DNA of 42,114 bases. It comes from Rhodocyclales bacterium. GTDB lineage: Bacteria; Pseudomonadota; Gammaproteobacteria; Burkholderiales; Rhodocyclaceae. Positions 2,766 through 42,007 of the stretch are shown piece after piece. Numbering within the stretch: the stretch's first letter is position 1; every line of letters begins with the position of its first letter. The position numbers and the translations under genes were made by a program. The DNA lies in the NCBI GenBank assembly GCA_050872585.1, contig JBNMHE010000001.1, positions 1 to 42,114 on the forward strand, read 5' to 3'. Under the pieces are notes generated by a model. It searched no databases. It saw nothing but the letters and a program-made list of their open reading frames with translations, and was not told the origin of the DNA.

Positions 2766-2832
2766 GTTGACCGTGGATTTTTTTTAAATTTTTTAAAATT
2801 TTTCAGCACTTTTAAAAAAATCCACGGTCAAC
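2766..2832. terminator. inverted pair of the 12-mer repeat (GTTGACCGTGGA at 2766-2777, TCCACGGTCAAC at 2821-2832); putative intrinsic terminator after menA
   Basis: The 12-bp arms are exactly complementary and flanked by T and A runs. The pair lies 21 nt downstream of the menA stop. Confidence 0.5.
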
Positions 2833-2852
2833 CCAAATTTTTTTTTGATTTT

Positions 2853-3710
2853 TCAAAAAGACAAAAAACAACAACCCAACAAAATAGAAAACACAAATTG
2901 CAAGCGGGCGCAAAAAGCCAACAAAGCATTTAAAGCGTGGGCGGATTCAGTAAAAAATCGTTGGATTGCCCAAATGGCAAAAGGCAAACACAAAAAAGGC
3001 AAATAACATTGCAAAAAAGGCAACATCAAAAAAGGCAACAAAACTTCCAATGCAAAAATCCATTTGATTTTTTGCTTGCCCAAACAAACGGCAAGCGTGT
3101 TTTTGTTGTTTTTTTTGTCTTCGTTGAAATCGCGGTAATTGTTGATGGTCATCACCGATGCCGCCAGCAAACCCGTTAAACAAGAAAGAAAAAAAACATT
3201 CCAAGAAAACAAAAAGGTTTGCACATAAAAACCGCCGCAAACCGCCACAATGCCAAAAAAAATAAGCACAAACACTTCGCCAAAAGGATGATAAGCAATG
3301 GGATATTTGCCGCCCGTGTAAGCCCAACCTGAAAACAAAGAAGCAATGCCAATCAAAAAAATGAGCCAACCTGCCCAAAAAATCAAATAAATGCCGCCCA
3401 AAAGCGCCAAGAAAAAAACAAAAAACGCCATTGTTTTCACACTTTTGGCAGACAAATAACCTTGTGCCACCACGCGCGGCGGGCCCAAACGCGCTTTGGT
3501 ATCGGCGCCTTTTTCAAAGTCAAAAACATCGTTGAACAAATTGGTGCCGATTTGAATGCACAACGCAGAAAACAAGGTGATTAAAAAAGGTAAAAAATAA
3601 AATGTGCCGTTTTGACAATACGCCAACATCGCGGACAAAATCACAGGCGATGCAGAAAGCGGCAAAGTTCTGGGACGAATGGCAAGCCACCAACAATCAA
3701 ACCAAGACAT
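2853..3710 (-). CDS. menA: 1,4-dihydroxy-2-naphthoate polyprenyltransferase (UbiA superfamily)
   Basis: 285-aa polytopic membrane ORF. The motif [20 protein letters not shown] parallels E. coli MenA NDYGDAVKGSD...R.GP.R. Confidence 0.75.
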
Positions 3711-3771
3711 AAAAAAAGTTTTAAAAGCAAAAAGGCAAAAGTATAAAATGCGTTTTACAAAAAAATTTCAG

Positions 3772-3783
3772 GTTGACCGTGGA
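3772..3783 (+). repeat. 12-mer repeat copy (GTTGACCGTGGA) overlapping the uvrC start
   Basis: Exact match preceded by AAAAAAATTTCAG. Confidence 0.95.
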
Positions 3784-5596
3784 AAAACGTTTTGATGCCC
3801 ATTTGTTTTTAAAAAATGCGCCGGAAAAACCCGGCGTTTATCGCATGTGGGATAAAAATCACAACCTGCTCTACGTGGGCAAAGCCAAAAATCTTAAAAA
3901 ACGCTTGGCATCCTATTTTCAAAAAAACACCAAAAGTGCGCGCATAGCCTCGATGGTTTCTCAAATTGCCCACATTGATTTGAGCATCACGCACACGGAA
4001 AAAGAAGCGCTTTTGTTGGAAAGCAATTTGATTAAAACCCAAAACCCGCGCTACAACATTATTTTTCGGGATGACAAATCTTATCCGTATATTGCGCTCT
4101 CGCGCGAAGATTATCCGCGCTTGTTGTTTTTTCGCGGCAAACCCAACAAAAATGCCGATTATTTTGGTCCTTTTCCCAACGCCAACGCGGTGCGTGAAAG
4201 TATGGCGGCATTAGAAAAAATCTTCAAATTGCGCACGTGTGAAAACAGCGTTTTTCGTTTTAGAACACGCCCTTGTTTGCTTTTTCAAATCAAACGTTGT
4301 TCGGGTGCTTGCACGGGCGAAATTGCGCAAAATGCTTATTTTGAAGATGTGCAAATGGCGCGCCTTTTTTTAAGCGGAAAAAGCGCGCAGGTTTTGCAAA
4401 ATTTAAAAAATGCGATGGCGGCTGCCGCCCAAAATCTGGCTTTTGAATCGGCAATGCGTTACCGCGACCAAATCAACGCCTTAAATGCTTTGTTGGAAAA
4501 ACAAGCCATTGCCACAAAAACGCGCCATCCTATTGATATTGTTGGCATTGCGATTGTGGAAGGCAAAACTTGCGCAAGCGTAGCATTTGTGCGAGACGGG
4601 CAATATTTGGGCGAGCGCGCGTTTTTTCCGCAAAATGATAAAAATTTAGACGAATCGGATATTCCCAACATTTTGGAAGCCTTTTTAAGCGATTTTTATA
4701 GCCATCACGAATCGCCCAAAACATTGATTTTAAAAGAAAATTTAAGCGAGGAAGCGGCAGAGTTTTTGATTTCAAGTTTTGGTTGTTCTATCAAAACCCC
4801 AAAAAATCGCCTAGAAAAAGCGTGGGTGGATTTGTGCGCGCAAAATGCCTTGGAAACTTTAATGCGCCAGCAAACAACGCAAAATAATGCGGCAATGCGC
4901 CACAAGCAATTGGAAGAAATTTTAAAAATGGACATTGCCCGCGTGGAATGTTTTGACATCAGCCACACGCAGGGCGAAAAAACGGTGGCATCCTGCGTGG
5001 TTTATCAAGATTTTGCGATGCGCCACAAGGATTATCGGCAATTCAACATTGAAAACATCACGCCCGGTGACGATTATGCCGCGATGAATCAAGCTTTATC
5101 CCGCCGCTACGCTTCGGTTTTAAAAAACGGCGGCGTGTTGCCCAGTTTAATTTTGATTGACGGCGGATTGGGTCAAGTTAAAAAAGCGCAAAAAGCCTTG
5201 GAAGAAATCGGCTTATCGGGTTTGCCGCTCTTAGGCGTTGCCAAAGGTGTAGAAAGAAAAGCGGGGTTGGAAGAATTGATTTTGCTCACAGAAAATGTTG
5301 TTCATCGTTTTCGCCTGCCGCCTGAAAATTGGGCGCTGCATTTAATCCAAGAAATTCGCGATGAATCGCATCGCTTTGCCATCACACGCCACCGCGCGCG
5401 CCGCGCAAAATCGCGCAAACGCTCCATTTTGGACGATATTGCCGGAATCGGCGCCCAACGCCGCAAAGCTTTAATTGCGCATTTTGGCAGTGTTTCTGCT
5501 TTAAAAAACGCCACTTTAAAAGAAATTTTAAGCATTCCCAAAATGCCCAAAAAAGTGGCAGAAGAAATTGTTGCCGCTTTCAAAAATCCACGGTAA
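3779..5596 (+). CDS. uvrC: excinuclease ABC subunit C
   Basis: The GIY-YIG N-terminus (PGVYRMWDKNHNLLYVGKAKNLKKRLASYF) aligns with E. coli UvrC from residue 5. GTG at 3779 gives the same N-terminal length as E. coli; TTG at 3773 is the alternative. There is no ATG upstream of the conserved FDA motif. Confidence 0.9.
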   Translation: MEKRFDAHLFLKNAPEKPGVYRMWDKNHNLLYVGKAKNLKKRLASYFQKNTKSARIASMVSQIAHIDLSITHTEKEALLLESNLIKTQNPRYNIIFRDDKSYPYIALSREDYPRLLFFRGKPNKNADYFGPFPNANAVRESMAALEKIFKLRTCENSVFRFRTRPCLLFQIKRCSGACTGEIAQNAYFEDVQMARLFLSGKSAQVLQNLKNAMAAAAQNLAFESAMRYRDQINALNALLEKQAIATKTRHPIDIVGIAIVEGKTCASVAFVRDGQYLGERAFFPQNDKNLDESDIPNILEAFLSDFYSHHESPKTLILKENLSEEAAEFLISSFGCSIKTPKNRLEKAWVDLCAQNALETLMRQQTTQNNAAMRHKQLEEILKMDIARVECFDISHTQGEKTVASCVVYQDFAMRHKDYRQFNIENITPGDDYAAMNQALSRRYASVLKNGGVLPSLILIDGGLGQVKKAQKALEEIGLSGLPLLGVAKGVERKAGLEELILLTENVVHRFRLPPENWALHLIQEIRDESHRFAITRHRARRAKSRKRSILDDIAGIGAQRRKALIAHFGSVSALKNATLKEILSIPKMPKKVAEEIVAAFKNPR

Positions 5597-5637
5597 ACCC
5601 AATATTTTTTTGAAAAAAAAACGCAGTTGACCGTGGA
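5587..5637. terminator. inverted pair of the 12-mer repeat (variant TCCACGGTAAAC at 5587-5598, GTTGACCGTGGA at 5626-5637) after uvrC
   Basis: The arms are complementary apart from one mismatch. The first arm contains the uvrC TAA stop (5594-5596). Confidence 0.45.
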
Positions 5638-5687
5638 AAATCAAAAATTAAAATGTTTTGTTTCAAACTTCATCACCACTTTTTAAA

Positions 5688-6251
5688 ATGCCTTTGAATT
5701 TGCCTATCTTCTTAACGTGGTGCCGCATTGTTGCCATTTTGTTTTTGGTCGGCATTTATTATGTGCCCGAGCCGTGGCTTGCAATGTCGGCACGCAATGT
5801 TTTTGCCAGCCTGATTTTTATTTTGGCAGCGCTTACCGATTGGTTGGATGGCTTTTTGGCGCGGCGCTTAAACCAAACTTCCGCATTTGGCGCTTTTTTA
5901 GACCCGGTTGCCGACAAATTGATGGTGGCAACAACGCTGATTTTGTTGCTGGAATTGGGGCGCTGTGATGCCATTTTGGCGCTTGTTATCATCGGGCGCG
6001 AAATCACCATTTCGGCGCTGCGCGAATGGATGGCAAAAGTGGGCAAAAGCAAATCGGTTGCGGTGTCAATGATTGGCAAAATCAAAACCAGCGCGCAAAT
6101 GCTGGCACTGCCTTTGTTGCTTTACGCCGCGCCAATTTTTGGCATCAACACGCTTTTTTGTGGCAAAGTTTTGCTCTCCCTTGCCGCCTTTTTAACCTTG
6201 TGGTCAATGTTTTATTACCTTTCCAAAGCCTTGCCTGCTTTCAAAGAATAA
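5688..6251 (+). CDS. pgsA: CDP-diacylglycerol--glycerol-3-phosphate 3-phosphatidyltransferase
   Basis: It has the CDP-alcohol phosphatidyltransferase motif DGFLARRLNQTSAFGAFLDPVADK. ATG at 5688 gives MPLNLPIFLTWCRI, matching the E. coli PgsA N-terminus; the ORF track start at 5658 is probably too early. Confidence 0.9.
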   Translation: MPLNLPIFLTWCRIVAILFLVGIYYVPEPWLAMSARNVFASLIFILAALTDWLDGFLARRLNQTSAFGAFLDPVADKLMVATTLILLLELGRCDAILALVIIGREITISALREWMAKVGKSKSVAVSMIGKIKTSAQMLALPLLLYAAPIFGINTLFCGKVLLSLAAFLTLWSMFYYLSKALPAFKE

Positions 6252-6256
6252 AAAAA

Positions 6257-6307
6257 TCCACGGTCAATGTGAAAAAATTTTCAAAAAAACAATCGGTTGA
6301 CCGTGGA
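6257..6307. terminator. inverted pair of the 12-mer repeat (variant TCCACGGTCAAT at 6257-6268, GTTGACCGTGGA at 6296-6307) after pgsA
   Basis: The hairpin arms start 6 nt after the pgsA stop and are followed by a T6 run. Confidence 0.5.
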
Positions 6308-6371
6308 TTTTTTACCTAACCCATTGATTTTTAAAGGAAAACAAAATAAAATGAAGACGCAAATTAAAAAT

Positions 6372-6427
<56 letters not shown>

Positions 6428-6441
6428 CAGCCGAGCCGCTT

Positions 6442-7449
6442 TTGAGCATCATTGTGCCGGTTTACAATGTTGAAAAATATTTGCCTGAAACCATCCAAAG
6501 CGTCCTTTGCCAACATTTTGAACATTACGAAGCCATTTTTGTCAATGATGCTTCCACCGATTCTTGTCCTTCTCTTCTCAACAAAACGCAACAAGAACAT
6601 CCGCACAAAATCAAAGTCATTCATTTAAAAGAAAATCGCGGAACACATTACGCGCGAAAAATCGGCGTGCAGCACGCCACTGGAAAATTCATCAGCTTTT
6701 TGGATGGCGATGATACTTTCTTGCCCCATGCTTTTGAAACCATGGCTTGCGAAATGCACAAAAATCCAGCAGATATTTTGCGGTTTGATGTGGCATTTTG
6801 CGATTTGTCTTCCAACATTCTTTCCCGCAAAACCGGCTTTGAAGAATGGTTTAATCCAAGTTTTGCACCCGTTTTCGGTCATCAACAAGTTTTGGCGCAT
6901 CTTTTTTTAAAGAAAAATGCCGCACACAATGTTTTTGCCGCGCTTTATCCTGCCGCGTTAATTCAAAAAACTTTTGAACATTTAAGCAATGCATGGATTG
7001 TTTCTTGCGAAGACCAATACACCACGCTGATTTTGGCGCATTTTGCCCAAAGTTTGCGCCAAGTGAATGTGCCCGTTTATGTTTATCGTTTGGGTTCAGG
7101 CGTTTCGTTTAACCAAATGGATTTAAACAAAGCCGCACTTTTGTTGTTGTCTTTTTTGAATATTGAAAAAGGTTTAAAAAATTTTCCACTGCATGCCAGC
7201 GTGCAACATTACGCCCAAAATTTTCCCAAAGAGCGCGCCAATGGCGTTGCAAAAGCCTATTTGAATGCGTGGGAAAACATGGTGCATGGCGTTTTTGAAA
7301 ACGAACAACAAGCACATTTTGCGCTTTATCACGCATCTTTGCGCGCCATTCCAATGAGCCGCGCAGAAAAATTAGGCAAATTTTTGTTGTTCCCTTTTTA
7401 TTGGCTTCAAAAAATCTTTCAAAAATTGAAAAACAATAAAAACAATTAA
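6442..7449 (+). CDS. family 2 glycosyltransferase, putatively phase-variable
   Basis: 335-aa ORF beginning SIIVPVYNVEKYL...VNDASTD...FLDGDD, a GT2 signature. The TTG at 6442 is only the first in-frame start after a stop. The upstream ATG at 6351 with an AAGGA Shine-Dalgarno sequence is one frame off at 14 repeat units. Confidence 0.8.
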   Translation: MSIIVPVYNVEKYLPETIQSVLCQHFEHYEAIFVNDASTDSCPSLLNKTQQEHPHKIKVIHLKENRGTHYARKIGVQHATGKFISFLDGDDTFLPHAFETMACEMHKNPADILRFDVAFCDLSSNILSRKTGFEEWFNPSFAPVFGHQQVLAHLFLKKNAAHNVFAALYPAALIQKTFEHLSNAWIVSCEDQYTTLILAHFAQSLRQVNVPVYVYRLGSGVSFNQMDLNKAALLLLSFLNIEKGLKNFPLHASVQHYAQNFPKERANGVAKAYLNAWENMVHGVFENEQQAHFALYHASLRAIPMSRAEKLGKFLLFPFYWLQKIFQKLKNNKNN

Positions 7450-7473
7450 AAAAAATAATTAAAAAACAAAAAA

Positions 7474-7485
7474 TCCACGGTCAAC
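7474..7485 (-). repeat. 12-mer repeat copy (plus strand reads TCCACGGTCAAC)
   Basis: Exact match in the convergent gap between the GT2 gene and the oxidoreductase gene. Confidence 0.95.
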
Positions 7486-7533
7486 GTCAAATTTTTTTTA
7501 TTTTTTTAATTAAAAAAAAATAAAAAATAAAAA

Positions 7534-8640: not shown

Positions 8641-8652
8641 GGCATTTATTTT

Positions 8653-8712
8653 TCCACGGTCAACCCATTATTTTTTTTAAATTTTTAAAAATTTTTTTCA
8701 GTTGACCGTGGA
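8653..8712. terminator. inverted pair of the 12-mer repeat (8653-8664 and 8701-8712) after sodB
   Basis: Exact complementary arms downstream of the sodB stop (8741) on the minus strand. Confidence 0.5.
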
Positions 8713-10564: not shown

Positions 10565-10576
10565 TCCACGGTCAAC
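10565..10576 (-). repeat. 12-mer repeat copy (plus strand reads TCCACGGTCAAC)
   Basis: Exact match between the methyltransferase stop and the xseA start. Confidence 0.95.
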
Positions 10577-10604: not shown

Positions 10605-11777
10605 TTATTCTTCTAATTTTTTTAAAAACGGCAAAAAGGATTCATTTAACAAACTATTTTCCAAACTTTGTTGCGAAAATAAAAAACGACCATCGCAAAC
10701 AAAACCCAAATCTTGCCAATTATTTTGATTAAGCAAAAAACACAATTGTTTTAAACTTTCTTCATTGACTTTAAATTTTGGAAAAATCGCCAAAACAGAA
10801 CCATCATAAGCATAAACAGAATGAATAAAAAATGGAAAAGCATAACGCGTTTTGCAATTCACATAAATTCTAGGCAAATCACTTTTGAAATAATCGCGTC
10901 CCCATTCCCACCAATTATTTTCATTCATTTTTTTAATTTTTCTATTGACTAATTGCGTTTTGTATTTTTTTAAATATTTTTTATTTTCATCATTAAAATA
11001 ATAAATCATTTTTTTTGTTTTTCCGGTTTGATTGGTTTTGGAACAAACAAAATCCAAATTGCCGTATTTTTCATTTTCAAAAATCAAATCGGAACCGCTA
11101 ACAGCGCCAACTTTTACAAAAAACAAATCTTTAAAAAAAACGGGATAGTTGTTTTGGGTAAAAAATAATTGTCCTTGAATACAATGAAAATAATTTTTAA
11201 AATTAAAATTATTCTTTTCAAAACGCCAAATTGCACAATTAGGTTGCGCATCGGAAAATAATTTTACATCGCCCAAATCTATAAAATGTGTAATAGAACC
11301 TTGTTGAAAAATAAACTCATTAAGTTTTTTGGCAGAAGTGCTTTTCATAAAATCGCGCGGTGTAATAAAAACCAATTCTCCATTTTCTTTTAAATGCAAA
11401 ATACATTTGTAAATAAAAAACAAATACAAATTGGCATTTTTATAAAACAAAGAATGAAAATTTTTTAATAAATTTTTTTTTGTTTTTGGTAATATATTTT
11501 GGTATTTAACATAAGGCGGATTACCAATAATAACATCAAATTTTTCATTTAAAGGATAATCAAAAAAATCTATATTTAAAATCTCTTTTTGTTTGATGGC
11601 GTTTTGGTCTAATTCTATTCCAATTTTGTGCGCCGGCAATTGTTGAAAAAAAGCGCCATTGCCGGCGCTGGGTTCCAAATAACGTGCTTGTGGATTTTGA
11701 TTGTGAATCAACAACAACATTTGTTGAACCAGATTTTCAGGCGTGAAAAATTGTCCAAAATGGTCTTTTTTTTTCAT
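10605..11777 (-). CDS. gamma-class N6-adenine DNA methyltransferase (TaqI/Eco57I-like), with no adjacent endonuclease
   Basis: 390-aa ORF with motif X FGQFFTP, motif I LEPSAGNGAF and motif IV IIGNPPYVKY in gamma order, followed by a C-terminal target-recognition region. It is strongly AT-rich compared with its neighbours. Confidence 0.8.
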   Translation of the reverse strand: MKKKDHFGQFFTPENLVQQMLLLIHNQNPQARYLEPSAGNGAFFQQLPAHKIGIELDQNAIKQKEILNIDFFDYPLNEKFDVIIGNPPYVKYQNILPKTKKNLLKNFHSLFYKNANLYLFFIYKCILHLKENGELVFITPRDFMKSTSAKKLNEFIFQQGSITHFIDLGDVKLFSDAQPNCAIWRFEKNNFNFKNYFHCIQGQLFFTQNNYPVFFKDLFFVKVGAVSGSDLIFENEKYGNLDFVCSKTNQTGKTKKMIYYFNDENKKYLKKYKTQLVNRKIKKMNENNWWEWGRDYFKSDLPRIYVNCKTRYAFPFFIHSVYAYDGSVLAIFPKFKVNEESLKQLCFLLNQNNWQDLGFVCDGRFLFSQQSLENSLLNESFLPFLKKLEE

Positions 11778-12322: not shown

Positions 12323-12371
12323 TCCACGGTCGACTTAAATTTTTTTAAAAAAATTTGCCGTTGACCGTGGA
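12323..12371. terminator. inverted pair of the 12-mer repeat (variant TCCACGGTCGAC at 12323-12334, GTTGACCGTGGA at 12360-12371) after cysK
   Basis: Complementary arms with one mismatch, 30 nt downstream of the cysK stop on the minus strand. Confidence 0.45.
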
Positions 12372-13446: not shown

Positions 13447-13458
13447 TCCACGGTCAAC
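13447..13458 (-). repeat. 12-mer repeat copy (plus strand reads TCCACGGTCAAC)
   Basis: Exact match in the divergent gap between cysK and the TPR/GT41 gene. Confidence 0.95.
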
Positions 13459-15578: not shown

Positions 15579-15590
15579 TCCACGGTCAAC
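15579..15590 (-). repeat. 12-mer repeat copy (plus strand reads TCCACGGTCAAC)
   Basis: Exact match in the convergent gap between the TPR/GT41 gene and dnaE. Confidence 0.95.
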
Positions 15591-19084: not shown

Positions 19085-19101
19085 TCCACGTTGACCGTGG
19101 A
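19085..19101 (-). terminator. compact palindromic form of the repeat (TCCACG-TTGAC-CGTGGA); putative terminator of the tRNA operon
   Basis: The minus strand reads TCCACGGTCAACGTGGA followed by T8, starting 19 nt after the tRNA-Leu 3' end. It includes an exact GTTGACCGTGGA at 19090-19101. Confidence 0.5.
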
Positions 19102-19365: not shown

Positions 19366-19377
19366 TCCACGGTCAAC
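19366..19377 (-). repeat. 12-mer repeat copy (plus strand reads TCCACGGTCAAC)
   Basis: Exact match downstream of the rnfH-family gene stop and upstream of the tRNA promoter. Confidence 0.95.
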
Positions 19378-20714: not shown

Positions 20715-20726
20715 GTTGACCGTGGA
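20715..20726 (+). repeat. 12-mer repeat copy (GTTGACCGTGGA) overlapping the dnaB start
   Basis: Exact match preceded by AAAAAAAATAAAG. Confidence 0.95.
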
Positions 20727-22127: not shown

Positions 22128-22188
22128 AAAAAATTTGACCGTTGACCGTGGATTTTTAAAAAATCCACGGTCAACGGTCAAATTTTTT
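22128..22188. terminator. 61-nt near-perfect palindrome built from two repeat copies; bidirectional terminator between convergent dnaB and the large glycosyltransferase
   Basis: Positions 22128-22152 pair perfectly (25 bp) with 22164-22188. The centre is T5/A6, and the outer arms are A6/T6 runs. Confidence 0.7.
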
Positions 22189-22212: not shown

Positions 22213-25200
22213 TTAAAAATCACACCAAGCCGAGCGCCATTCTTCCAAATGGTTTTGCAAAATCCAATCTTTTTTCACCCATTCGCGCAAGGTGTTGCCC
22301 GCCAAAGCAGCAGAATCCAAATCGTTGATGTGTTCGCGGATGGCATTCATCCACGCTTTGGGCGTATTTTCCACCAAGGTCACTGGAAATTGGCTGCGGG
22401 CATACGGTCCAAAATTGCTGGCCACAACGGGATAACCCAAAATGCCGTATTCCAACAACTTCAAATGGCTTTTGCATTCGTTAAAAGCATTGTGCGCCAA
22501 AGGGGCAATGGCCAAATCCAAATTCAAAGATGCCAAATAAGCCGGATATTCTGGCGTAGGCACGCCGCTATGCCATTCCACAATATCGCGGATTTCCTCA
22601 GGGCACATTCCAAAAAAGACCCATTCCACTTCATTGGCCAAACGTTTGACCACTTCAAAAATTTCTTGCAAATCACCGCGATGCGAAATGCCGCCTGTCC
22701 AACCTACGCGCGGCTTTTTGCCTTGTTTGCGTTTGGGCGTTAAATTGCCCCATTTGGTGTTGTCCAAATAATTGGGAATGATGCGAATATCATCAATGTA
22801 TCGCGAGTAAACTTCTTTTAAAGGTTCGGTTGTCACCACAAAACGATCACAAAATGACAATGCTTTTTCCAAACGTTGGGCCAAATCTTTGGCAATATGC
22901 ACATAATGGTCAGAAGAAACATTGACTTGGGTAATAAAATCGTCCAACTCATAAACCAAACGCATTTTGGAATAACGCCGATAATTCTGCAAAAAGCGCA
23001 ACTGGTCATCGGAAATTTGGCGTTGCAAATACAAAGTATCGGCTTGAAAAACTTCCAAATCAAAGGGGTTAAAATGTTGCGCACTCAAAAAACCATCAAT
23101 CAATCCGGCTTTTTGCACGGCGTAAAAAGGTTCAATAACACGATAATGGCCGCAACCCATATTGTCTGCATTGAATGCCATCACGCGCGGCAAAGGTTTA
23201 AAAGACAAGCGCATTTTGGAAACTTCGGGCACATTGCTTAATTGAAACGGATTCAAACGGCTTAAATTGATATTGTAAAAAGGATCTTGTGCCATTTGCG
23301 GCAACCAATTTTCCAGCAAACGCACTTCATCCGAATCGGTAATCAAATCGGCAGGTTTGTCGTTTAAAACAATTAAAGAAATCCACGGCAACCACACCAA
23401 ATTTTGTTGGGTTTGTTGTATGCGCATGGAAAAATCAACACAAGCGGCATGGTCTAATTTTTCCCAAGAAGTATCCAAACCGCCGGTTAAAGTCCACGTT
23501 TCTCTTCTTAACAAAAAGGCATCAAAGGTTAAAGCAGAAGGATTTTGCGTTATCAACTGCCTTGCAAAATGCCCTTTTTCATCAAAATGCGTGCCTTGAC
23601 CAAAGTGCGTTGCCGTGCCAACCGAGCCCAAAATCAAGGCATTGCCAAGCAAATTGCCTTGTTTGTTCAAAACGCGCGGAGCAACGGCACCCACATTCGG
23701 CATATTCAAATAAAGCGCCAACTTGGAAAATCCGCTTTTGTCCGCCCAAAGCGCATCGCAACGCGAGATAAAAATCAAAGGCGATGAACTTTGTTCCACC
23801 AACAAATTCACCATTAAGGTTTCCGTTTGGTCTTCTTGAATCAAATAAAAAGCCAAATTGGATGGCGGATTTTGGTCTACAGAATCCAAATAATCCAACA
23901 CTTGCGAAGACAGTTTGGGAGAAACCAAAACGGCAAATTGCGTGTTTTCAAATTGCGCAACCGTTTTTTCTACAAAATGCCGCATGAAAGCAAGATCATC
24001 CAAAGCCAAGCTAATCCACAAAACTTCTTCATGGACCACACTTTCGGGCAAAACTTCAAATGTGCCAGGCACAATGCCTTCTTGAATATGAAAAGAAGGC
24101 ATTTTTTGACAAAGCCATGGTTTAACATTGCCCGAGCGTTTTAAAATGCGTTCTTCAAAACGATGGTAAAGCACATCAGCAACATGACCAATGGCTTTTT
24201 TGCCGTGTTGTTGCCACAACAAAAACAAAGCAGCGTAAATTGGATTAGGTGCGGACAAATCCAAACCGCCCAAATTTTGAAGCGATGGAAGATGAAAAAA
24301 AACGCCATCACCCACATAATCATGAGCTAAAAAATAATCGGGGGAAAAATCCGGTTTGAAATAAGGATTGACCACATTGCCATCTTCATTAATGGCATCT
24401 TCATCCACATAAAAAGCTTTCCATTCCGGTTTTTGAAGCAAACGCTCTGCCAAAAAAGGCAAGGCATAAGGCAACAAATTGTCGCCCGATTCCAAAACAA
24501 TGGCGTAATCGACCGTGCTTTTTAAGATTTCTTGGTTTAAATCAGCCCAACAATTTTGGCTGTCTTTGACTTTTAACCAAGAAAGACGTTTCACCGATTG
24601 CAATTCTTCTGGCGGGTCAAAATCGGCCAAAATGCGCACGGAAAAATCATCGTAATAAAGGCGCGCCAAAGCATTTAAAGAAAGAGACAAGGTGTTGATT
24701 TTTTCAAGTTGCGCAACCAAAAACAATTCAAAATGCGGGACACGTTGTTGTTCTTGGAAAAATTTATCCAGCGCCACGGCTTCATGTTGGGCAATATTGT
24801 GCGCGGCCAGCAAAGAATAATAAGCGCTTAACACTTCGCTTTGCGGCGTCACCGGAAAATGCACTTCGCTTTCGCGGATGATTTTTTTGGCAAGCGATTC
24901 AGGCAAAAAATAACCATCATAAACTTCATTGGCCAGGGCAAAAATTTCTTTTAAATCTTTCAAGCCATAATCTTTTTGCAAAACGCCAAACCATTCTACA
25001 AAATCTTGGCGTGTTAAAACGCCCCAACGCGCTTGCATACAAAGCATCAAAGCCGTTGCAAATGCAACCGATGCGGCTTTTTTTTCTATGCCTTCTATTG
25101 AAAAATCCACGGTCAACGCCCATTTTTTTCCAAGATCAGAAAGCAACCAGTTGCATGCGGCTGGCAAACTCATATCCGCGCCTTTGATTAAAAAACTGGC

Positions 25201-27941: not shown

Positions 27942-27993
27942 TCCACGGTCAACGTTTAAAAAATTTTAAAAAAATTTTGGCGTTGACCGTGGA
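27942..27993. terminator. inverted pair of the 12-mer repeat (27942-27953 and 27982-27993) after the DUF4124-like gene
   Basis: Exact complementary arms immediately downstream of the stop at 27999 on the minus strand. Confidence 0.5.
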
Positions 27994-28481: not shown

Positions 28482-28493
28482 TCCACGGTCAAC
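28482..28493 (-). repeat. 12-mer repeat copy (plus strand reads TCCACGGTCAAC)
   Basis: Exact match 21 nt downstream of the glmS stop. Confidence 0.95.
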
Positions 28494-28513: not shown

Positions 28514-30340
28514 TTATTCCACCGTGACGCTTTTGGCCAAATTGCGCGGTTTATCCACATCCGTGCCTTTGACCAACGCCGCGTGGTAAGCCAACAGTTG
28601 CAAAGCCACCACGTGCAAAATGGGCGACAAAGCGCCGTAATGCTCGGGCAAGCGCAAAATATGCACGTGCGGGTTTTCAGCAACATCGGCATTGGAATCC
28701 GCAAAAATATAAAGCTCGCCGCCGCGCGCTTCTACTTCCTTTAAATTGGATTTGAGTTTGTCTATCAAAACATCGTTGGGTGCTACCACAATCACCGGCA
28801 TATTGGAATCAACCAAAGCCAATGGTCCGTGTTTTAATTCGCCAGCAGGGTAGGCTTCGGCGTGAATGTAGGAAATTTCTTTTAACTTCAAAGCGCCTTC
28901 TAATGCGATTGGGTAATGCCGCCCGCGCCCTAAAAATAAGGCATGCGATTTGTTGGCAAAACGCTTTGCCCACGCCACAATGGGCGATTCCAAATTCAAC
29001 ACCTTAACGATGGCGGCAGGCAAATGCCGCAATTCGTCCAAAAATTGCGATTCTTGATTTGCTGGCAACTTCCCGCGTATTTTGGCAAGCAAGAGTGTTA
29101 ATAAAAACAAAGCAACCAGTTGCGTGGTGAAGGCTTTGGTGGAAGCCACGCCAATTTCTGGCCCTGCGCGCGTTAAAAAAGAAAGCGCGCAGAGTTTGGT
29201 CATTGCCGATTCAGGCACGTTGCAAATGGCAAGCGTTTTGGGTTGATTTAAAGCCATGGCGTGTTGAATGGCGGCGATGGTATCTGCCGTCTCGCCCGAT
29301 TGCGAAATGCCCACCACCAACTGTTTGGGGTTGGCAACCGAACTTCTATAACGGTATTCGCTGGCAATTTCCACCGTGCAAGGAATTTGGGCGATGGCTT
29401 CCAACCAATAGCGCGCCGTCATTCCTGCGTGGGCAGAAGTGCCGCAAGCCAGAATTAAAACGCTTTCTACGTCTTTTAAAATAGCCAAAGCCTTGTTGCC
29501 AAAAATTGCCGCATCCAAAGTTTTTGCGGTGCCGAGAATTTCTAATGTGTCGACAATGGCTTGCGGTTGTTCAAAAATTTCTTTTTGCATGTAATGCCGA
29601 AAATTGCCCAATTCCACAGCGGCGGCAGAAAGTGCGGTTTCATAAATTGGGCGCTCAATTTTTTGGTTGGTTTTGGCACAACGAATTTCAAAGGATTTGG
29701 GCGTTAAACGCGCGCAATCGCCGCTTTCCAAATGCAGCATTTTTTTGGTGACTTGCAAAAGCGCCGAAGCATCGCTTGCGGCAAAAAAGCCATCTTCTGC
29801 CAAACCGATTAAAAGCGGCATATGTTGGCAAGCAATAACCACTTCGTGCGGATTGTTAGAATCAATCACGGCAATAGAAAACGTGCCTTCCAAATCTTGC
29901 ACGGCGCGGCAAACGGCTGAAAAAAAGTCTGTTTCGCTTTGGCAGTATGCGTGAATCAAATGCGCAATGCTCTCTGAATCGGTGTCTGATTCAAAGGTGT
30001 AGCCCAAGCCTTCTAAGCGGTGGCGCAGATTTTCAAAATTTTCCACAATGCCGTTGTGCACCACGGCGATATTTTTGGAAATATGCGGGTGCGCGTTTTT
30101 TTCACACGGTGCGCCGTGCGTTGCCCAGCGCGTGTGGGCAATGCCCGTGAAAGCTTTTAAGTTTTGTGATTCTGATTCTAATGCCACAACGCGCCCCACT
30201 GCGCGGCGGCGAACGATGGCATTATCCGAAACAATCGCCAAGCCCGCCGAATCGTAACCGCGGTATTCTAATTTTTTCAAACCTTCCAACAAGTTCGGCA
30301 CAATATTGCGCATTGCCGCCGCTGCCACAATTCCGCACAT
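28514..30340 (-). CDS. glmS: glutamine--fructose-6-phosphate aminotransferase
   Basis: 608-aa ORF with an MCGIVA N-terminal nucleophile, two SIS domains and a C-terminal KSVTVE. Confidence 0.97.
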   Translation of the reverse strand: MCGIVAAAAMRNIVPNLLEGLKKLEYRGYDSAGLAIVSDNAIVRRRAVGRVVALESESQNLKAFTGIAHTRWATHGAPCEKNAHPHISKNIAVVHNGIVENFENLRHRLEGLGYTFESDTDSESIAHLIHAYCQSETDFFSAVCRAVQDLEGTFSIAVIDSNNPHEVVIACQHMPLLIGLAEDGFFAASDASALLQVTKKMLHLESGDCARLTPKSFEIRCAKTNQKIERPIYETALSAAAVELGNFRHYMQKEIFEQPQAIVDTLEILGTAKTLDAAIFGNKALAILKDVESVLILACGTSAHAGMTARYWLEAIAQIPCTVEIASEYRYRSSVANPKQLVVGISQSGETADTIAAIQHAMALNQPKTLAICNVPESAMTKLCALSFLTRAGPEIGVASTKAFTTQLVALFLLTLLLAKIRGKLPANQESQFLDELRHLPAAIVKVLNLESPIVAWAKRFANKSHALFLGRGRHYPIALEGALKLKEISYIHAEAYPAGELKHGPLALVDSNMPVIVVAPNDVLIDKLKSNLKEVEARGGELYIFADSNADVAENPHVHILRLPEHYGALSPILHVVALQLLAYHAALVKGTDVDKPRNLAKSVTVE

Positions 30341-30424
30341 AAAAAAAATCTCAAAAAAATCAAAAAAATAAAAAAAATGAAGAAATTAAACCATAAACCT
30401 TATTTTAAAAAAAAATTAAAAAAA

Positions 30425-30511
30425 TCCACGGTCAACCCAAATTTTTTTTGCTTTTTTGAATTTTTTACAAAAATTTCACAATTTTTAAAAAAATTTGGCG
30501 TTGACCGTGGA
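30425..30511. repeat. inverted pair of the 12-mer repeat (30425-30436 and 30500-30511) in a divergent promoter region
   Basis: Exact arms 63 nt apart, between the glmS start and the MFS gene start. The pair is not downstream of any gene. Confidence 0.9.
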
Positions 30512-32790: not shown

Positions 32791-32849
32791 TCCACGGTCA
32801 ACCTGTTATTTTTTTAAAATTTTAAAAATTTTTGAAGGTCGACCGTGGA
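32791..32849. terminator. inverted pair of the 12-mer repeat (32791-32802, variant GTCGACCGTGGA at 32838-32849) after the TerC gene
   Basis: The arms start 6 nt after the TerC stop and are followed by a T6 run. Confidence 0.5.
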
Positions 32850-34239: not shown

Positions 34240-34297
34240 TCCACGGTCAACGCTTTATTTTTTTTAAAATTGAAAATTTTTCAGAGTTGACCGTGGA
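34240..34297. terminator. inverted pair of the 12-mer repeat (34240-34251 and 34286-34297) between convergent genes
   Basis: Exact arms between the dgt stop (34209) and the stop at 34323 of the minus-strand gene. Confidence 0.5.
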
Positions 34298-35347: not shown

Positions 35348-35359
35348 GTTGACCGTGGA
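35348..35359 (+). repeat. 12-mer repeat copy (GTTGACCGTGGA)
   Basis: Exact match flanked by A10 and T7 runs, 18 nt downstream of the cheA stop. Confidence 0.95.
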
Positions 35360-35376: not shown

Positions 35377-37236
35377 TTAAACCGATTCCAATGCACGCAC
35401 GTTGGTGCGTTGATTAGGATCAAAAAGCAATTCTTTGATATCCAAAATCAACACGATTTTGCCGTTGGAAAGTGTGGTCACCCCCGCAATGCCTTTGGGG
35501 CGAAAACCTTCCAAAGATTTCACCACGGCATCATCTCTGCCCGCAAAACTATCCACGCCCAAAATAAAACTGCGTTCTGCCGTTTGAATGGAGACGCCAT
35601 AACCCGGATAACGCTCTTGCGGCCAGCCCAGCAATTTAACCAAAGAAACCACCGGCAACACTTCGCCGCGCACCACCAAGGTTTCTTTGCCGCCCACTTC
35701 TTGGATTTGCTCTTTGTCAATAGGCAAAATTTCACGCACCAGTGAAAGCGGCAAAGCAAAAGGTTGTTCGTCCAATTGCACAATCAAAACCGGCAAAATC
35801 GCAAGCGTTAAAGGCAGCGAAATCACAAAAACCGAGCCTTTGCCCAACTCCGAGCGGATTTCAATAGAACCATTGAGTTTTTGAATATTGGTTTTCACCA
35901 CATCCATCCCCACGCCGCGCCCAGAAACACTGGATATTTGCGTTTTGGTGGAAAATCCGGGTAAGAAAATCAAATTCAAACTTTGGCGGTCATCCAAAGT
36001 GTTGGCTTCTTCCTCAGAAATCAAACCTTTTTCAATGGCTTTGGCACGAATATGTTCGGGGCTCATCCCTTTGCCATCATCGGCAATCATCAACACAATG
36101 TGGTCGCCTTCTTGACGCGCTTCCAAGCGTACCAAACTTTTTTCGGGTTTACCATAAGAGCGGCGCTCTTCGGGCGTTTCAACACCGTGGTCAACGGCGT
36201 TCCTAACCAAGTGAATCAACGGATCCGCCAAGTCTTCAATCATCGTTTTGTCGACTTCGGTTTCTTCACCCGCCATCACCAATTCAATGTTTTTGCCCAT
36301 TTGGCGCGCCAAATCCCGCGCGATGCGTGGGTATTTTTGAAAGAGTCTGCCAATGGGTTGCATGCGGGTTTTCATCACGGAATTTTGCAAATCCGAGACC
36401 AACAAATCCAGTTGATTGACCGCTTGATCCAATGCGTGCAAAGTTTCGGTATCGTTTTTGCCAGCCAAAATATCACTTCTTAAACTGGTGAGCCGATTTT
36501 TGGTTAAACCAATTTCGCCCGACAAATTCAAAACTTGGTCAAGCCGCGCAGTATCCACCCGAATGGTGGTTTCTCTGTTGCTTTCAACCGAACGTCTACT
36601 ATTGACAGCGCTGGGCGCGGCTTTGGGCGCAGAAGATGCAACATTGTGCATTGCGGCAGCGCTTGCGGTATTTTGCACGGCAACGGGTGGCGTATTGTTT
36701 TGCGTCATTGCGGCATGCACCGCATTCCAATCCGGTTCATTGGAAACATTGGAAGAAGATGGCGCATTTTGCGCAGGATTTTCCACGGTCGACGCGGATT
36801 TTTTTTCATTTTGCATTTCAGCAGGAACATCCGTTGTCAGCGCCTTACCTTCCACCACATCTTTTAAAGATTGCAAAATGGTGGCATCGGCTGGTTTGGG
36901 TTGCACCATTTGTTGCAATTCGTCAAACATTTGGTGCACGCCTTGCGTTGCCGCCATAATGATATCCATGAGTTCAGGCGTTAATTCCAATTGTCCGTTG
37001 CGCAATTTATCAAAAATATTTTCTGTTAATTGGCAAAGCGTAACCAATTCAACTGCATTCAAAAAGCCGGCACCGCCTTTGATGGTATGAAAACCGCGAA
37101 AAACATCGTTTAACAAACTGCGGTCATCAGGTGTTTTTTCCAATTCCACCAGTTTGTTATCCACATCGCTTAAAAGATCATAAGCTTCTTGCAGAAAATC
37201 CTGTAAGAGTTCTTCCATGCCGGCAAAATCACTCAT
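35377..37236 (-). CDS. cheA: chemotaxis histidine kinase CheA
   Basis: It has an Hpt domain (FRGFHTIKGGAGFL), an HATPase core (LVRNAVDHGVE, DDGKGM, GRGVGMDVV) and a C-terminal CheW-like domain. ATG at 37236 is preceded by AGGAGA. Confidence 0.95.
   Translation of the reverse strand: MSDFAGMEELLQDFLQEAYDLLSDVDNKLVELEKTPDDRSLLNDVFRGFHTIKGGAGFLNAVELVTLCQLTENIFDKLRNGQLELTPELMDIIMAATQGVHQMFDELQQMVQPKPADATILQSLKDVVEGKALTTDVPAEMQNEKKSASTVENPAQNAPSSSNVSNEPDWNAVHAAMTQNNTPPVAVQNTASAAAMHNVASSAPKAAPSAVNSRRSVESNRETTIRVDTARLDQVLNLSGEIGLTKNRLTSLRSDILAGKNDTETLHALDQAVNQLDLLVSDLQNSVMKTRMQPIGRLFQKYPRIARDLARQMGKNIELVMAGEETEVDKTMIEDLADPLIHLVRNAVDHGVETPEERRSYGKPEKSLVRLEARQEGDHIVLMIADDGKGMSPEHIRAKAIEKGLISEEEANTLDDRQSLNLIFLPGFSTKTQISSVSGRGVGMDVVKTNIQKLNGSIEIRSELGKGSVFVISLPLTLAILPVLIVQLDEQPFALPLSLVREILPIDKEQIQEVGGKETLVVRGEVLPVVSLVKLLGWPQERYPGYGVSIQTAERSFILGVDSFAGRDDAVVKSLEGFRPKGIAGVTTLSNGKIVLILDIKELLFDPNQRTNVRALESV
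36782..36793 (-). repeat. 12-mer repeat copy (variant, plus strand TCCACGGTCGAC) inside the cheA linker
   Basis: The sense strand reads GCG TCG ACC GTG GAA, encoding ASTVE, in the low-complexity region after the Hpt domain. Confidence 0.9.
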
Positions 37237-37246
37237 GTTTATTCTC

Positions 37247-38083
37247 CTAGAAGCCAAGATTGGCTAACAATTCATCCACTTGTTCTTGATTGACCACCAC
37301 ATCGGTGCGCCCTTGCGATTTAATCACCGGACCTTGCAACATATGATTAACAGCAGGCGTTTTTTTGTCATCCGGCACCACTTGCAACAAAACGCTCATC
37401 AAACTGCTTTCCAACTCTTGTGCAACCTCAATGATTTTTTTGATGACTTGGCCGGTTAAATCTTGAAAATCTTGCGCCATCATCATTTCATTGAGTTGCT
37501 TATGCAAAATGGCATTTTTTTGCGGCAGTTCTTCGCTTAAAAACGCTTGCGTATCCAAAGACAATTGGCGCAAACCTTGCGCATCCAATTGATTGGCAAA
37601 CAATTGCGCCCAACGATGCGACAAACCTTGTGCCGTTTGATTAACCGAATCCAACACCGGGCGCGCCGTATCAGTGGCATTGAGCACTTTGCAAGCGGCT
37701 TGTTCGGTTAAATTGGCAACGTATTCCAAACGCGCTTTGGTATCCGGCATGGCTTCAATGCTTTTTTCCAGCATTTTGTCATAGCCCAACTTGCGCAAAG
37801 TATCATGCAATGTGCGCGTCATTTGTCCCAGTTGATTGAATACGTTTTCTTGCGCATTCCAATTGTTTTCCACGGTCAACGCAGAATTTTTTTGAAAATT
37901 ATTCACCGAATCTGCCGCATTTTTTAACATTTGTGTTTGTTCGGGCGTAGGCGATGCAACTTTTGCTTGCAAAGGCGGCACAGATGCTTGCACATTTTGT
38001 GGCAAAGCATCATGAGCTTGATTGTTTGCCGCAATAGAATCAAATAAGGCTTCTAATTCGTCAGAATCGTTGGTGGCAGTCAT
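37247..38083 (-). CDS. cheZ: CheY-P phosphatase CheZ
   Basis: QDFQDLTGQVIKKIIEVAQELE matches the CheZ active-site helix, and the C-terminal DELLANLGF matches the CheY-binding peptide. Confidence 0.9.
   Translation of the reverse strand: MTATNDSDELEALFDSIAANNQAHDALPQNVQASVPPLQAKVASPTPEQTQMLKNAADSVNNFQKNSALTVENNWNAQENVFNQLGQMTRTLHDTLRKLGYDKMLEKSIEAMPDTKARLEYVANLTEQAACKVLNATDTARPVLDSVNQTAQGLSHRWAQLFANQLDAQGLRQLSLDTQAFLSEELPQKNAILHKQLNEMMMAQDFQDLTGQVIKKIIEVAQELESSLMSVLLQVVPDDKKTPAVNHMLQGPVIKSQGRTDVVVNQEQVDELLANLGF
37869..37880 (-). repeat. 12-mer repeat copy inside the cheZ N-terminal variable region
   Basis: Exact match. The sense strand reads GCG TTG ACC GTG GAA, encoding ALTVE. Confidence 0.95.
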
Positions 38084-38095
38084 GGTGGTTGCTCC

Positions 38096-38488: not shown

Positions 38489-38513
38489 TTGTTTCTCCTT
38501 TTTTCAATGTTTT

Positions 38514-39461: not shown

Positions 39462-39467
39462 AATCTC

Positions 39468-40418: not shown

Positions 40419-40481
40419 GCCAATCCCCTTTAATACTTTTTTTATTCAATCAATCGCTAGTTTAAACCAAAGGCCAAATTT

Positions 40482-40531
40482 TCCACGGTCAACGCTTCTT
40501 TTTTTTGAAAAAATTTTGCGTTCACCGTGGA
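40482..40531. terminator. inverted pair of the 12-mer repeat (40482-40493, variant GTTCACCGTGGA at 40520-40531) after the thiolase gene
   Basis: Arms with one mismatch, about 20 nt downstream of the thiolase stop on the minus strand. Confidence 0.45.
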
Positions 40532-40551
40532 AAAACAAATCTAAAAAAGAT

Positions 40552-41733
40552 TTACATCCGTTCAAAAATAGCGGCAATGCCTTGGCCGCCACCGATGCAC
40601 ATCGTTACCAAACCGTATTTGCCACCTGTGCGTTGCAATTCATAAAGCGCTTTGGTTGCCACAAATGCGCCCGTGCAGCCCACCGGATGCCCCAAAGCAA
40701 TGGCGCCGCCATTGGGGTTGGTTTTGGCTGGGTCAAAGCCCAATTCATTTGCCACGGCACAAGCTTGTGCGGCAAAGGCTTCATTGGCTTCAATCACATC
40801 CATTTGGTCTAAACTCAAACCGGCTTTTTTAAGCGCCAAGCGCACAGCGGGAACAGGACCAATGCCCATAATTTCATGCGGCACGCCTGCCACAGCATAA
40901 GAAACCAAACGTGCCATCGGTTTTTGACCAGCGGCTTTGGCGGCTTCTTCGGAAGCCAACACAAAAAAGCATGCGCCATCATTGAGCGATGAAGCATTGC
41001 CCGCGGTTACCGTGCCGTCTTTTTTGAAAACAGGTTTCATTTTGGCTAATTTTTCTAAGGTAACTTCTTTGGGATTTTCATCCACATTGAACACCACATC
41101 GCCTTTGCGGGTTTTTAAAGTGATATCCACAATTTGCGATTTAAAATGGCCAGCTTTAATGGCGGCAGCGGCACGCGTTTGCGAAGTTAAAGCCAATTCA
41201 TCTTGCATTTGGCGCGTGATGCCGTATTTTTCTGCGACATTTTCAGCGGTAACACCCATATGCCCAACACCAAATGGGTCGGTTACAACCGAAACCATAC
41301 CGTCAAAAGCGCTCACATCGCCCATGCGTGCGCCCCAACGCAAATTAGGCAACATATAAGCCGCACGCGACATGGATTCCACACCGCCGCCAATGCCGTA
41401 TTGCACTTCACCTAACATAATTTGTTGTGCGGTGGTCACAATGGCTTGCAAACCCGAAGAACACAAGCGATTGACCGCCATTGCAATGGAATTGTTTTCA
41501 TCACAACCAGCATTGACCGATGCCACGCGTGCCACATAAGCATAACGTTTATCGGTGGGCATGGTGTTGCCAACGGTCACATATTCAATGGCTTTGGGAT
41601 CCACGCCGGAACGCGCAATGGCTTCTTTCATCACCACCGTGGCCAATTCACAAGGTTCCATATCTTTCAAAGAACCACCATAAGCACCGATTGCAGAACG
41701 CACAGCACTCAAAACCACAACGTCTTTACTCAT
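40552..41733 (-). CDS. acetyl-CoA C-acetyltransferase (thiolase II)
   Basis: 393 aa with the active-site Cys region (VNRLCSSGLQA), and the C-terminal NPNGGAIALGHP and MCIGGGQG motifs. Confidence 0.93.
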   Translation of the reverse strand: MSKDVVVLSAVRSAIGAYGGSLKDMEPCELATVVMKEAIARSGVDPKAIEYVTVGNTMPTDKRYAYVARVASVNAGCDENNSIAMAVNRLCSSGLQAIVTTAQQIMLGEVQYGIGGGVESMSRAAYMLPNLRWGARMGDVSAFDGMVSVVTDPFGVGHMGVTAENVAEKYGITRQMQDELALTSQTRAAAAIKAGHFKSQIVDITLKTRKGDVVFNVDENPKEVTLEKLAKMKPVFKKDGTVTAGNASSLNDGACFFVLASEEAAKAAGQKPMARLVSYAVAGVPHEIMGIGPVPAVRLALKKAGLSLDQMDVIEANEAFAAQACAVANELGFDPAKTNPNGGAIALGHPVGCTGAFVATKALYELQRTGGKYGLVTMCIGGGQGIAAIFERM

Positions 41734-41956
41734 TACTTTTTCTCCTCACTTAAAAAATACCTGACCATTTCTGCACACAACAAAAACGGCACAAGCACCG
41801 GGCACAACAAAAATTTTCAACCGAACACTTGTTGTTGTAAGCTTTGGCGGCCACAATTTGCTTTGCGCACAGACCAAAGTCGGCAAGGCGCATTTTAAAC
41901 CAAATTGCCTTGTCTTAAAACAACATAGGCAAAATTGCCGTTTGCCAAAATAAAAA

Positions 41957-42007
41957 TCCACGGTCAACCCTTATTTTTTTTGAATTTTTTTTGGCGTTGA
42001 CCGTGGA
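41957..42007. repeat. inverted pair of the 12-mer repeat (41957-41968 and 41996-42007) in a divergent intergenic region
   Basis: Exact arms between the thiolase start and the start of the next plus-strand ORF. Confidence 0.9.

Follow-up and report, generated by a model that had tools for sequence, protein, structure and literature searches.

What purpose does a 12-nt word serve that recurs at nearly every gene boundary of a stretch of bacterial DNA? The stretch in question comprises positions 1–42,114 of contig JBNMHE010000001.1 (Rhodocyclales bacterium, GenBank assembly GCA_050872585.1; hereafter the window, 42,114 nt in total), and the word is the non-palindromic 12-mer GTTGACCGTGGA. An initial annotation of the window proposed that it is a DNA uptake sequence of a new kind. 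According to a 2025 survey, such sequences are known only from the Neisseriaceae and the Pasteurellaceae (10.1101/2025.10.24.684340); sequence-biased DNA uptake is established in these two bacterial families only, and the origin of its signals, as well as their spread by molecular drive or by selection, is debated. The answer that we tentatively prefer, just short of an even chance in our judgment, is a signal of the type of the neisserial DNA uptake sequence (DUS) or the uptake signal sequence (USS) of Pasteurellaceae that was co-opted into terminators, and which by analogy would represent a third, independently evolved system in an uncultured betaproteobacterial clade outside the Neisseriaceae.

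Abundance and anatomy of the repeated unit

A pattern search of both strands of the window recovered 31 exact copies of the word and 37 with at most one mismatch, spanning positions 2766–42007, against means of 0.00 (exact) and 0.11 (≤1 mismatch) in dinucleotide-preserving shuffles. Seventeen copies lie on the plus and 20 on the minus strand, 24 of the 37 form 12 inverted pairs (10 divergent and two convergent), and 21 of the 23 intergenic gaps of at least 40 nt contain a copy. On all of these points (31 exact plus six one-mismatch copies, both orientations, 24 copies in inverted pairs, and a copy in nearly all gaps) the initial annotation proved accurate. The genes between the copies are housekeeping in character, including ispB, lysS, ubiA, uvrC, pgsA, sodB, xseA, rnpB, cysK, dnaE, three tRNAs, smpB, dnaB, glmS, terC, a dGTPase gene, a cheV-Y-Z-A operon and lipopolysaccharide-type glycosyltransferase genes. 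Since the copies are strand-balanced despite a GC skew that is negative over the entire window, a replication-polar word of the Chi or KOPS (FtsK orienting polar sequence) type is unlikely, and with strand use unbiased this type was ruled out. No Rfam family fits the element. In the literature the 12-mer was found only in unrelated papers, on eukaryotic genes and one unrelated bacterium, apparently as oligonucleotide sequence, and viral contigs gave no match to the word, a result that is uninformative given a chance expectation of about one or fewer. Nearly all of the intergenic DNA of the window consists of alternating A-runs and T-runs of 4–9 nt, also where the word is lacking (e.g., 1–147, 7450–7533, and 30341–30424).

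The word itself was correctly recognized, but the conserved unit is longer than 12 nt. In the alignment of all 37 copies, a T-run at −18 to −15 is followed by any base at −14, an A7 tract at −13 to −7, TT at −6/−5, and then, after a short remainder of linker, the 12-mer, directly 3′ of which stands AAA or TTT. Linker positions −4/−3 are uninformative, and −2/−1 are partly constrained and never T in the window copies. Each of the 37 window copies has the A7 tract at −13 to −7 (with A at position −12 in 37/37), as do the four populations described below, giving a composite unit of an A7 tract, a 6-nt linker and GTT[G/T]ACCGTGGA. The unit is oriented with its GGA end toward the nearest gene and its AT side toward the middle of the gap, and copies that face a gene start differ from those that face a gene end in their type of flank, AAA or TTT (p = 7.5e-9).

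Four window copies overlap a start or stop codon. The reading frames of uvrC (copy at 3772–3783, plus strand; TTG 3773 or GTG 3779 inside the word), xseA (10565–10576, minus strand; TTG 10575 or GTG 10569) and dnaB (20715–20726, plus strand; the strain-contig gene call starts at GTG inside the word) begin at TTG or GTG codons within the word. At the other end of uvrC, a GTTTAC variant furnishes the stop codon (TAA, 5594–5596) from the left arm of a palindromic 51-bp cassette with a 27-nt spacer (5587–5637).

Such an arrangement could be mistaken for the upstream half of a promoter, an A/T tract similar to an UP element followed by the −35 hexamer TTGACC. TTGACC does lie ∼7 nt downstream of the A-tract with a T-tract before it, an arrangement similar to the one in rrnB P1, with its UP element and −35 hexamer. 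Many copies, however, overlap start codons or face gene 3′ ends, the tRNA operon has a separate promoter-like site downstream of its copy, and TANNNT occurs at 16–18 nt in 1–3% of copies facing gene starts vs. 2–4% of those facing gene ends. Because there is no −10 hexamer at this distance whichever gene end is faced, we rejected the promoter explanation, which we consider highly improbable. Three other protein-binding or recombination sites were also discarded. The A-type reverse complement TTTTCCACG resembles a DnaA box, but only half of the copies fit and the GGTCAAC extension is left unexplained; an integration host factor site (WATCAANNNNTTR) is ruled out by spacing; and an integron attC-like site, suggested by inner arm ends …CAAC/GTTG… next to the unpaired linker, is ruled out by copies that are symmetric, flank housekeeping genes both ways and occur singly.

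The host is an uncultured betaproteobacterium of 42% GC whose LysS is ∼70% identical to Rhodocyclaceae proteins and whose nearer relatives are found only in metagenomes. Scanning for A7-N6-12-mer yielded 120 metagenomic loci (0.93 Mb) from four assemblies, in all of which the core CCGTGGA is present at 0.86–0.95 per kb with identical flanking architecture. In loci reached via proteins rather than via the motif its density is 0.66–0.75 per kb, and outgroups are at background; the abundance signature noted in the window extends in this way to four related populations, at 0.66–0.95 per kb. The median distance from the GGA end to stop codons in the metagenome loci is 11 nt. A reference-genome scan with DnaB returned only distant Thermosynechococcus matches, where the top repeated k-mer (loci L007–L010) is the cyanobacterial HIP1 word GGCGATCGCC, unrelated to the present finding.

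Position 4 of the word is mostly G in the window and in the OARM contigs, whereas G and T are balanced in the ERZ contigs (140:140, on the same contigs), a pattern of variation between species that is like a dialect, by analogy with known uptake sequences. Within ERZ1035025 (e.g., loci L041, L034, and L024) GTTGAC and GTTTAC forms are equally common and mixed within contigs; the reverse complement of the T-form carries TAA, often as the stop codon of the upstream gene, and 41 open reading frames (ORFs) end in that frame.

A syntenic sister species (locus L011, ∼71% nucleotide identity) carries the unit at orthologous places: the uvrC 5′ end, where its copy reads TTTGACCGTGGA, the lysS–ubiA gap, and a cassette after pgsA. 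The linkers at these sites are completely different, and copies are stable in position across species while their linkers randomize. Within the species, a strain comparison found 2/180 variable in the arms vs. 2.7% in other intergenic DNA, a comparison that is underpowered.

Paired copies, single copies, and what each excludes

In a set of 732 copies, the spacing between paired arms peaks sharply at 27 nt in the 173 divergent pairs (97/173) and at 12 nt in the 34 convergent ones. At the 27-nt spacing, two units share their AT side and yield a palindromic cassette of 51 bp in the order TCCACGGTNAAC, N6, T7, C or G, A7, N6, GTTNACCGTGGA. Arms and center are nearly invariant; the linker columns hold 0.05–0.3 bits and showed no excess complementarity, and the spacers are unique in 94/94 distinct cassettes. 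Because the core and A-tract register is invariant while the linkers carry ∼0 bits and all 94 spacers are unique, we take the pattern to point to recognition of the blocks rather than to recent copy-and-paste. The A7 and core blocks are most likely recognized as such, in what their layout suggests is a sequence-specific double-stranded DNA signal.

The pairs also have a function of their own as hairpins. Within ERZ pairs, arm position 4 is matched (odds ratio 9.2, p = 1e-5); since paired arms share the position-4 variant and neighboring unpaired copies do not, base pairing between the arms matters. Pairs are present in 60% of the convergent gaps, in 30% of the tandem ones and in 15% of the divergent ones (p = 3e-7), their flanks are A-run…T-run in 33 cases vs. 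T…A in 2, and their mean minimum free energy (MFE) is −21.5 kcal/mol. Over the first 20 kb of the window, every terminator-like hairpin in the gaps contains the word, and no other GC-rich hairpin is present. The description of an intrinsic terminator, a GC-rich stem-loop with a U tract downstream of genes, fits the pairs and not the singles. We have fair confidence that the paired cassette serves, as predicted from these features, as the standard bidirectional intrinsic terminator of the clade; it resembles known bidirectional terminators in its A-tract, 12-bp GC-rich stem, AT-rich apical part and T-tract, and in being most frequent between convergent genes. The initial annotation had pictured the inverted pairs as doubling as terminators, and gap-type distribution, arm covariation, A…T flanks and MFE agree with it. 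The rigid 27-nt geometry and the arm covariation show that the hairpins genuinely matter to the biology. The difference from ordinary bidirectional terminators is that one sequence is common to all stems here, and that it also stands unpaired and inside genes.

This difference bears on the simplest explanation of the pairs, that one successful terminator stem was copied among gaps by recombination or gene conversion without any role in recognition. In form and distribution the pairs do resemble bidirectional intrinsic terminators, and they are the sole GC-rich stems in the gaps. A stable stem suffices for termination, however, and no particular sequence is needed; as termination does not depend on one sequence, the word itself appears to be recognized by something. 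About 40% of copies are single and unable to fold: taken with their own linkers, the singles, 274 of them perfect, form no hairpin beyond background (mean −1.3 kcal/mol). Singles are equally common in divergent gaps and elsewhere, and 23 of the 53 divergent gaps, which need no terminator, hold them. Singles inside genes are conserved, and 12 nt are too short for homologous gene conversion. A pure terminator module is, in our estimate, quite improbable.

Three deep intragenic copies in the window, all on the sense strand of their genes and all preceded by an A-tract, are read in the frame xxG-TTG-ACC-GTG-GAx. The first (25106–25117, minus strand; ending GAt, with an A7 tract) lies in the gene for a 1258-aa glycosyltransferase. 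The second (36782–36793, minus strand), a GTCGAC variant with an A8 tract, is in the P1-P2 linker of cheA, where it encodes EKKSASTVEN; the cheA orthologue of L140 has GTCCACCGTGGA with A7. The third (37869–37880, minus strand), with an A7 tract, lies in the variable N-terminal region of cheZ, encodes QKNSALTVEN and is kept in the cheZ genes of L140 and L142. The cheZ and cheA copies thus lie in poorly conserved linkers and keep their site in two or three species. Their A7 tracts and third-codon positions are retained there while neighboring residues vary, the identical third positions of the three cheZ copies (window, L140, and L142) being those of ACC GTG GAA. Conserved singles in poorly conserved coding linkers are more readily explained by an uptake signal than by a hairpin element.

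A discrete hairpin element to consider is one akin to the repetitive extragenic palindromes (REPs) of Escherichia coli and Pseudomonas and their compound forms (bacterial interspersed mosaic elements, BIMEs, and REPINs). The 51-bp cassette would then be the unit, spread or maintained by a REP-associated tyrosine transposase (RAYT) or another hairpin-recognizing enzyme, the singles would be decayed halves, and the role could be post-transcriptional, as a terminator or an mRNA-stabilizing stem-loop. The 57% of copies in inverted pairs with their sharp 27-nt spacing, the covariation of arm position 4 within pairs, and the strongly extragenic placement with enrichment at gene 3′ ends all conform to this, as do singles that are somewhat more degenerate than paired arms, a tandem 51-nt triplication in one related locus (L085), and the cassette between uvrC and pgsA (5587–5637), which together with the entire gap is missing from L011, where uvrC abuts pgsA. 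As in E. coli REPs, stems are conserved and loops variable, and both kinds of element form inverted doublets that fold into hairpins. A REP unit, however, is an imperfect palindrome of ∼20–40 nt, whereas here only the 51-bp doublet is palindromic and the 12-mer has no self-complementarity. The 274 perfect unpaired arms lack an alternative hairpin. There is no master sequence, since each of the 94 spacers differs from all others and the linkers are uninformative, nor are the linkers complementary. Many singles look functional, and intragenic singles are conserved across species (cheZ and cheA), with another in the glycosyltransferase gene. The density of the word is several-fold above that typical of REPs.

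The hallmarks of transposition were also absent from the DNA that was covered. The two sides of a cassette are flanked independently, without any pattern of direct repeats (A…T in 33 cases, A…A in 26, T…T in 28, and T…A in 20; Fisher p = 0.85). Neither a phmmer search with the RayT protein of E. coli (lowest E about 1) nor a search for the HUH…Y motif revealed a RAYT in ∼1 Mb of sequence from partial genomes. A miniature inverted-repeat transposable element (MITE; e.g., the Correia element) was ruled out, with no target-site duplication and no direct repeats at the window pairs. The tests of a REP/MITE origin suggested in the initial annotation, on flanks and transposase, gave negative results within the DNA covered, but rigid pairs and covariation favor a discrete element. 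On balance we regard a REP-like origin as unlikely.

Protein binding without uptake is the remaining explanation of conserved blocks parted by fixed-length random linkers. In that case each copy would be a site for an abundant boundary protein (a nucleoid, insulator or roadblock-termination factor) that binds an A-tract bend plus the 12-mer, and would be maintained by selection site by site. Nearly every gap holds a copy, the GGA end keeps its short distance to stop codons, the AAA/TTT flank tracks the gene start or end faced, and the gaps contain no other GC-rich hairpin, all of which would suit such punctuation. Against it, selection acting site by site would need to keep 11 positions unchanged at roughly one site for every gene, and a roadblock maintained across species inside the coding regions of cheZ and cheA would be harmful. 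To our knowledge, no bacterial DNA-binding protein has thousands of near-perfect 12-bp sites. We consider a boundary protein unlikely as well, and slightly more so than a REP-like element.

The proposed uptake signal and its candidate machinery

If the word is an uptake signal, a preference for self-DNA during uptake through a type IV pilus and ComEA, followed by recombination, would keep its thousands of copies perfect. It would build up where it is tolerated, in intergenic gaps and unconstrained protein linkers. Two back-to-back units would share their AT side and so form the 51-bp palindrome, which the cell would use as its standard bidirectional intrinsic terminator. As part of this best explanation we infer both the uptake bias and the identity of the receptor. 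The uptake proposal of the initial annotation is thereby supported in part. The in silico signatures on which it was based hold and extend beyond the window; the hairpin function evident from rigid 27-nt pairs and arm covariation has to be added to it.

Known uptake sequences offer close parallels for this dual role. In the survey cited above, uptake sequences (DUES) that lie between genes often form inverted repeats with a terminator function. Predicted terminators contain about half of all DUES and, on average, 70–90% of the inverted-repeat DUES, and DUES accumulate in intergenic DNA and in poorly conserved gene parts, with a frame bias (10.1101/2025.10.24.684340). The Neisseriaceae DUS (ATGCCGTCTGAA and its dialects, with ComP as receptor) is likewise a non-palindromic 12-mer present about once per kb on both strands, in hundreds to thousands of copies. 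Its single positions vary among related species in the manner of dialects, its inverted pairs serve as terminators at the downstream ends of genes, its coding copies show a frame bias and sit in permissive regions, and its hosts are betaproteobacteria with type IV pili. The sequences differ, as the initial annotation had recognized in matching the word to neither DUS nor USS: the CTG core kept in every described DUS dialect is absent from GTTGACCGTGGA (10.1101/2025.10.24.684340), which shares only CCGT with the GCCGTCTGAA type. Here, moreover, an A7 tract is mandatory at a fixed offset, the fraction of pairs is much higher and their geometry rigid, the host LysS is nearest to Rhodocyclaceae (∼70%) and not to Neisseriaceae, and the counterpart of ComP is only a candidate.

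With the Pasteurellaceae USS (AAGTGCGGT plus AT tracts) the word has in common an invariant GC-containing core, low-information positions, A/T tracts in a fixed register, a similar density and inverted pairs in terminators. The USS core, AAGTGCGGT or ACAAGCGGT, is however unrelated to the word, and the host belongs to another class. USS are mostly intragenic, whereas the word is ∼90% intergenic here. We regard the shared register of A/T tracts as analogous architecture, not homology. Because neither the DUS nor the USS sequence is present, the word belongs to neither family, although it shares their distributional properties.

Contigs that bear the motif carry genes for PilB, PilT, a secretin (with AMIN and Secretin_N domains), several pilins and ComEA. 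A clade-specific PilE-like minor pilin with Cys-rich insertions (L056, 3639–4265; proteins P0257–P0264), encoded in a minor-pilin cluster, is ∼40 residues longer than its nearest relatives (≤34% identical) and on these sequence features is a candidate receptor.

Several observations weigh against an uptake signal. The search for competence genes suggested by the initial annotation succeeded in part: the type IV pilus genes and comEA are present, but the DNA sampled, itself only part of each genome, did not contain comEC, dprA or comM. The PilE-like pilin scores 38.8 bits against PF16732 (ComP_DUS), above the Pfam cut-off, but the match covers only profile positions 1–43, the N-terminal half; a PDB sequence search returned generic pilin N-termini only, and an AlphaFold2 model of moderate confidence (pLDDT 66.6) is closer to FimA, PAK pilin and PilV than to ComP. 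Paired copies make up about 57% of the total, at a spacing that is very rigid (27 nt in 97/173 divergent pairs), and arm covariation also points to a discrete hairpin element. Some 10% of copies are intragenic (by crude gene calls), less than the coding share of about one third for DUS and two thirds for USS. Copies nearly saturate the gaps (21/23 in the window; 257/353 in the metagenome loci), which suggests a gene-boundary role beyond uptake alone. Finally, the organism is known only from metagenomes, and the 120 metagenome loci were ascertained by motif.

Were the uptake signal real, a third system with an unrelated word in another lineage would provide an independent test of models for the origin and spread of uptake signals, of the link between uptake signals and terminators, and of the search for receptors. 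Nearly every gene boundary would be marked by a word of self-recognition, and its 51-bp form would be a near-universal bidirectional terminator. A REP-like element or protein-bound punctuation would still be unusual, filling about three quarters of gaps, supplying start and stop codons and being conserved inside genes. The word is in practice a sharp marker for binning contigs of the clade, and it probably explains the fragmented assemblies of that clade.

Remaining copies and neighboring loci

The other copies of the window, in order, begin with a convergent pair between the lysS start and the ubiA end (2766–2832; arms 2766–2777 plus and 2821–2832 minus, around a 43-nt AT spacer), whose orthologous pair in L011 has one degenerate arm. 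A 51-bp palindromic cassette with A-run and T-run flanks (6257–6307) starts 5 nt past the pgsA stop; L011 has its cassette in the same place, with completely different linkers. A single copy (7474–7485, minus strand) faces the 3′ end of a family 2 glycosyltransferase (GT2) gene in a convergent gap, and a divergent pair with a 36-nt spacer (8653–8712) separates an oxidoreductase start from the sodB end. Between rnpB and cysK, a GTCGAC variant and an exact arm form a divergent pair with a 25-nt spacer and A…T flanks (12323–12371). Singles follow in the divergent gap between cysK and a tetratricopeptide repeat (TPR)-GT41 gene (13447–13458, minus strand), and 4 nt past the stop of the latter, in its 44-nt convergent gap with dnaE (15579–15590, minus strand).

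The single copy between tRNA-Leu and dnaE (19090–19101, plus strand) is part of a small terminator-like hairpin on the minus strand, TCCAC-GGTCAAC-GTGGA-T8. At the same junction L085 (7038–7190) carries three head-to-tail 51-nt units, each of an A-tract, tccacGTTGACCGTGGA and a T-run, where the window has this one copy. Another single (19366–19377, minus strand) lies 75 nt upstream of tRNA-Gly. The convergent pair between dnaB and the convergent gene for the 1258-aa glycosyltransferase (22141–22175) is a perfect hairpin with an 11-nt T5A6 loop, and is found in 6/6 strain contigs.

Farther along are a divergent pair with a 28-nt spacer and A…T flanks between a CmcI-like methyltransferase gene and a DUF4124 gene (27942–27993), a single between the glmS end and the start of this DUF4124 gene (28482–28493, minus strand), and a divergent pair with a 63-nt spacer in the divergent gap between glmS and a major facilitator superfamily transporter gene (30425–30511), with arm position 30432 polymorphic among strains. 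An exact arm and a GTCGAC variant are paired divergently between terC and the dGTPase gene (32791–32849; 35-nt spacer, A…T flanks), and a divergent pair with a 34-nt spacer occupies the convergent gap between the dGTPase gene and an octopine dehydrogenase-like gene (34240–34297). The start of the octopine dehydrogenase-like gene is separated from the cheA end by a single (35348–35359, plus strand). The last two are a divergent pair of an exact arm and a GTTCAC variant with a 26-nt spacer (40482–40531) and, in the divergent gap at the window end, a 51-bp palindromic cassette with a 27-nt spacer (41957–42007). The window closes with an 11-nt poly-G run (42104–42114), and OARM contigs are rich in poly-C/G 10-mers; the terminal run is probably a two-colour sequencer artefact at contig ends.

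Beside ispB in L011 (12666–19500), a Cas12a-Cas4-Cas1-Cas2 locus with its repeat array covers ∼7 kb with almost no bona fide copy of the word. The glmS ORF is 96–100% identical between L024 (9801–11628) and the window (28514–30340), whereas the flanking genes are only 40–77% identical, and the shift in identity comes no more than a few bases away from the start and stop codons. Either related species recently exchanged a gene-sized segment or the metagenome assembly is chimeric, and because of the latter alternative we did not use this mosaic as evidence of transformation.

Within the window, an Eco57I-family N6-adenine methyltransferase gene (10605–11777) in a stretch of low GC content (34%), with no adjoining endonuclease ORF, is possibly an acquired orphan methylase. 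A perfect (AATC)14 array (6372–6427, within 6351–6444) separates an upstream ATG (6351) from the GT2 glycosyltransferase ORF, which starts at TTG 6442. The ATG is 91 nt upstream of this ORF and out of frame with it, and one AATC unit less or two more would fuse the two. From its sequence the gene looks like a slipped-strand phase-variable surface-glycan gene, similar to the phase-variable tetranucleotide genes of Haemophilus and Neisseria.

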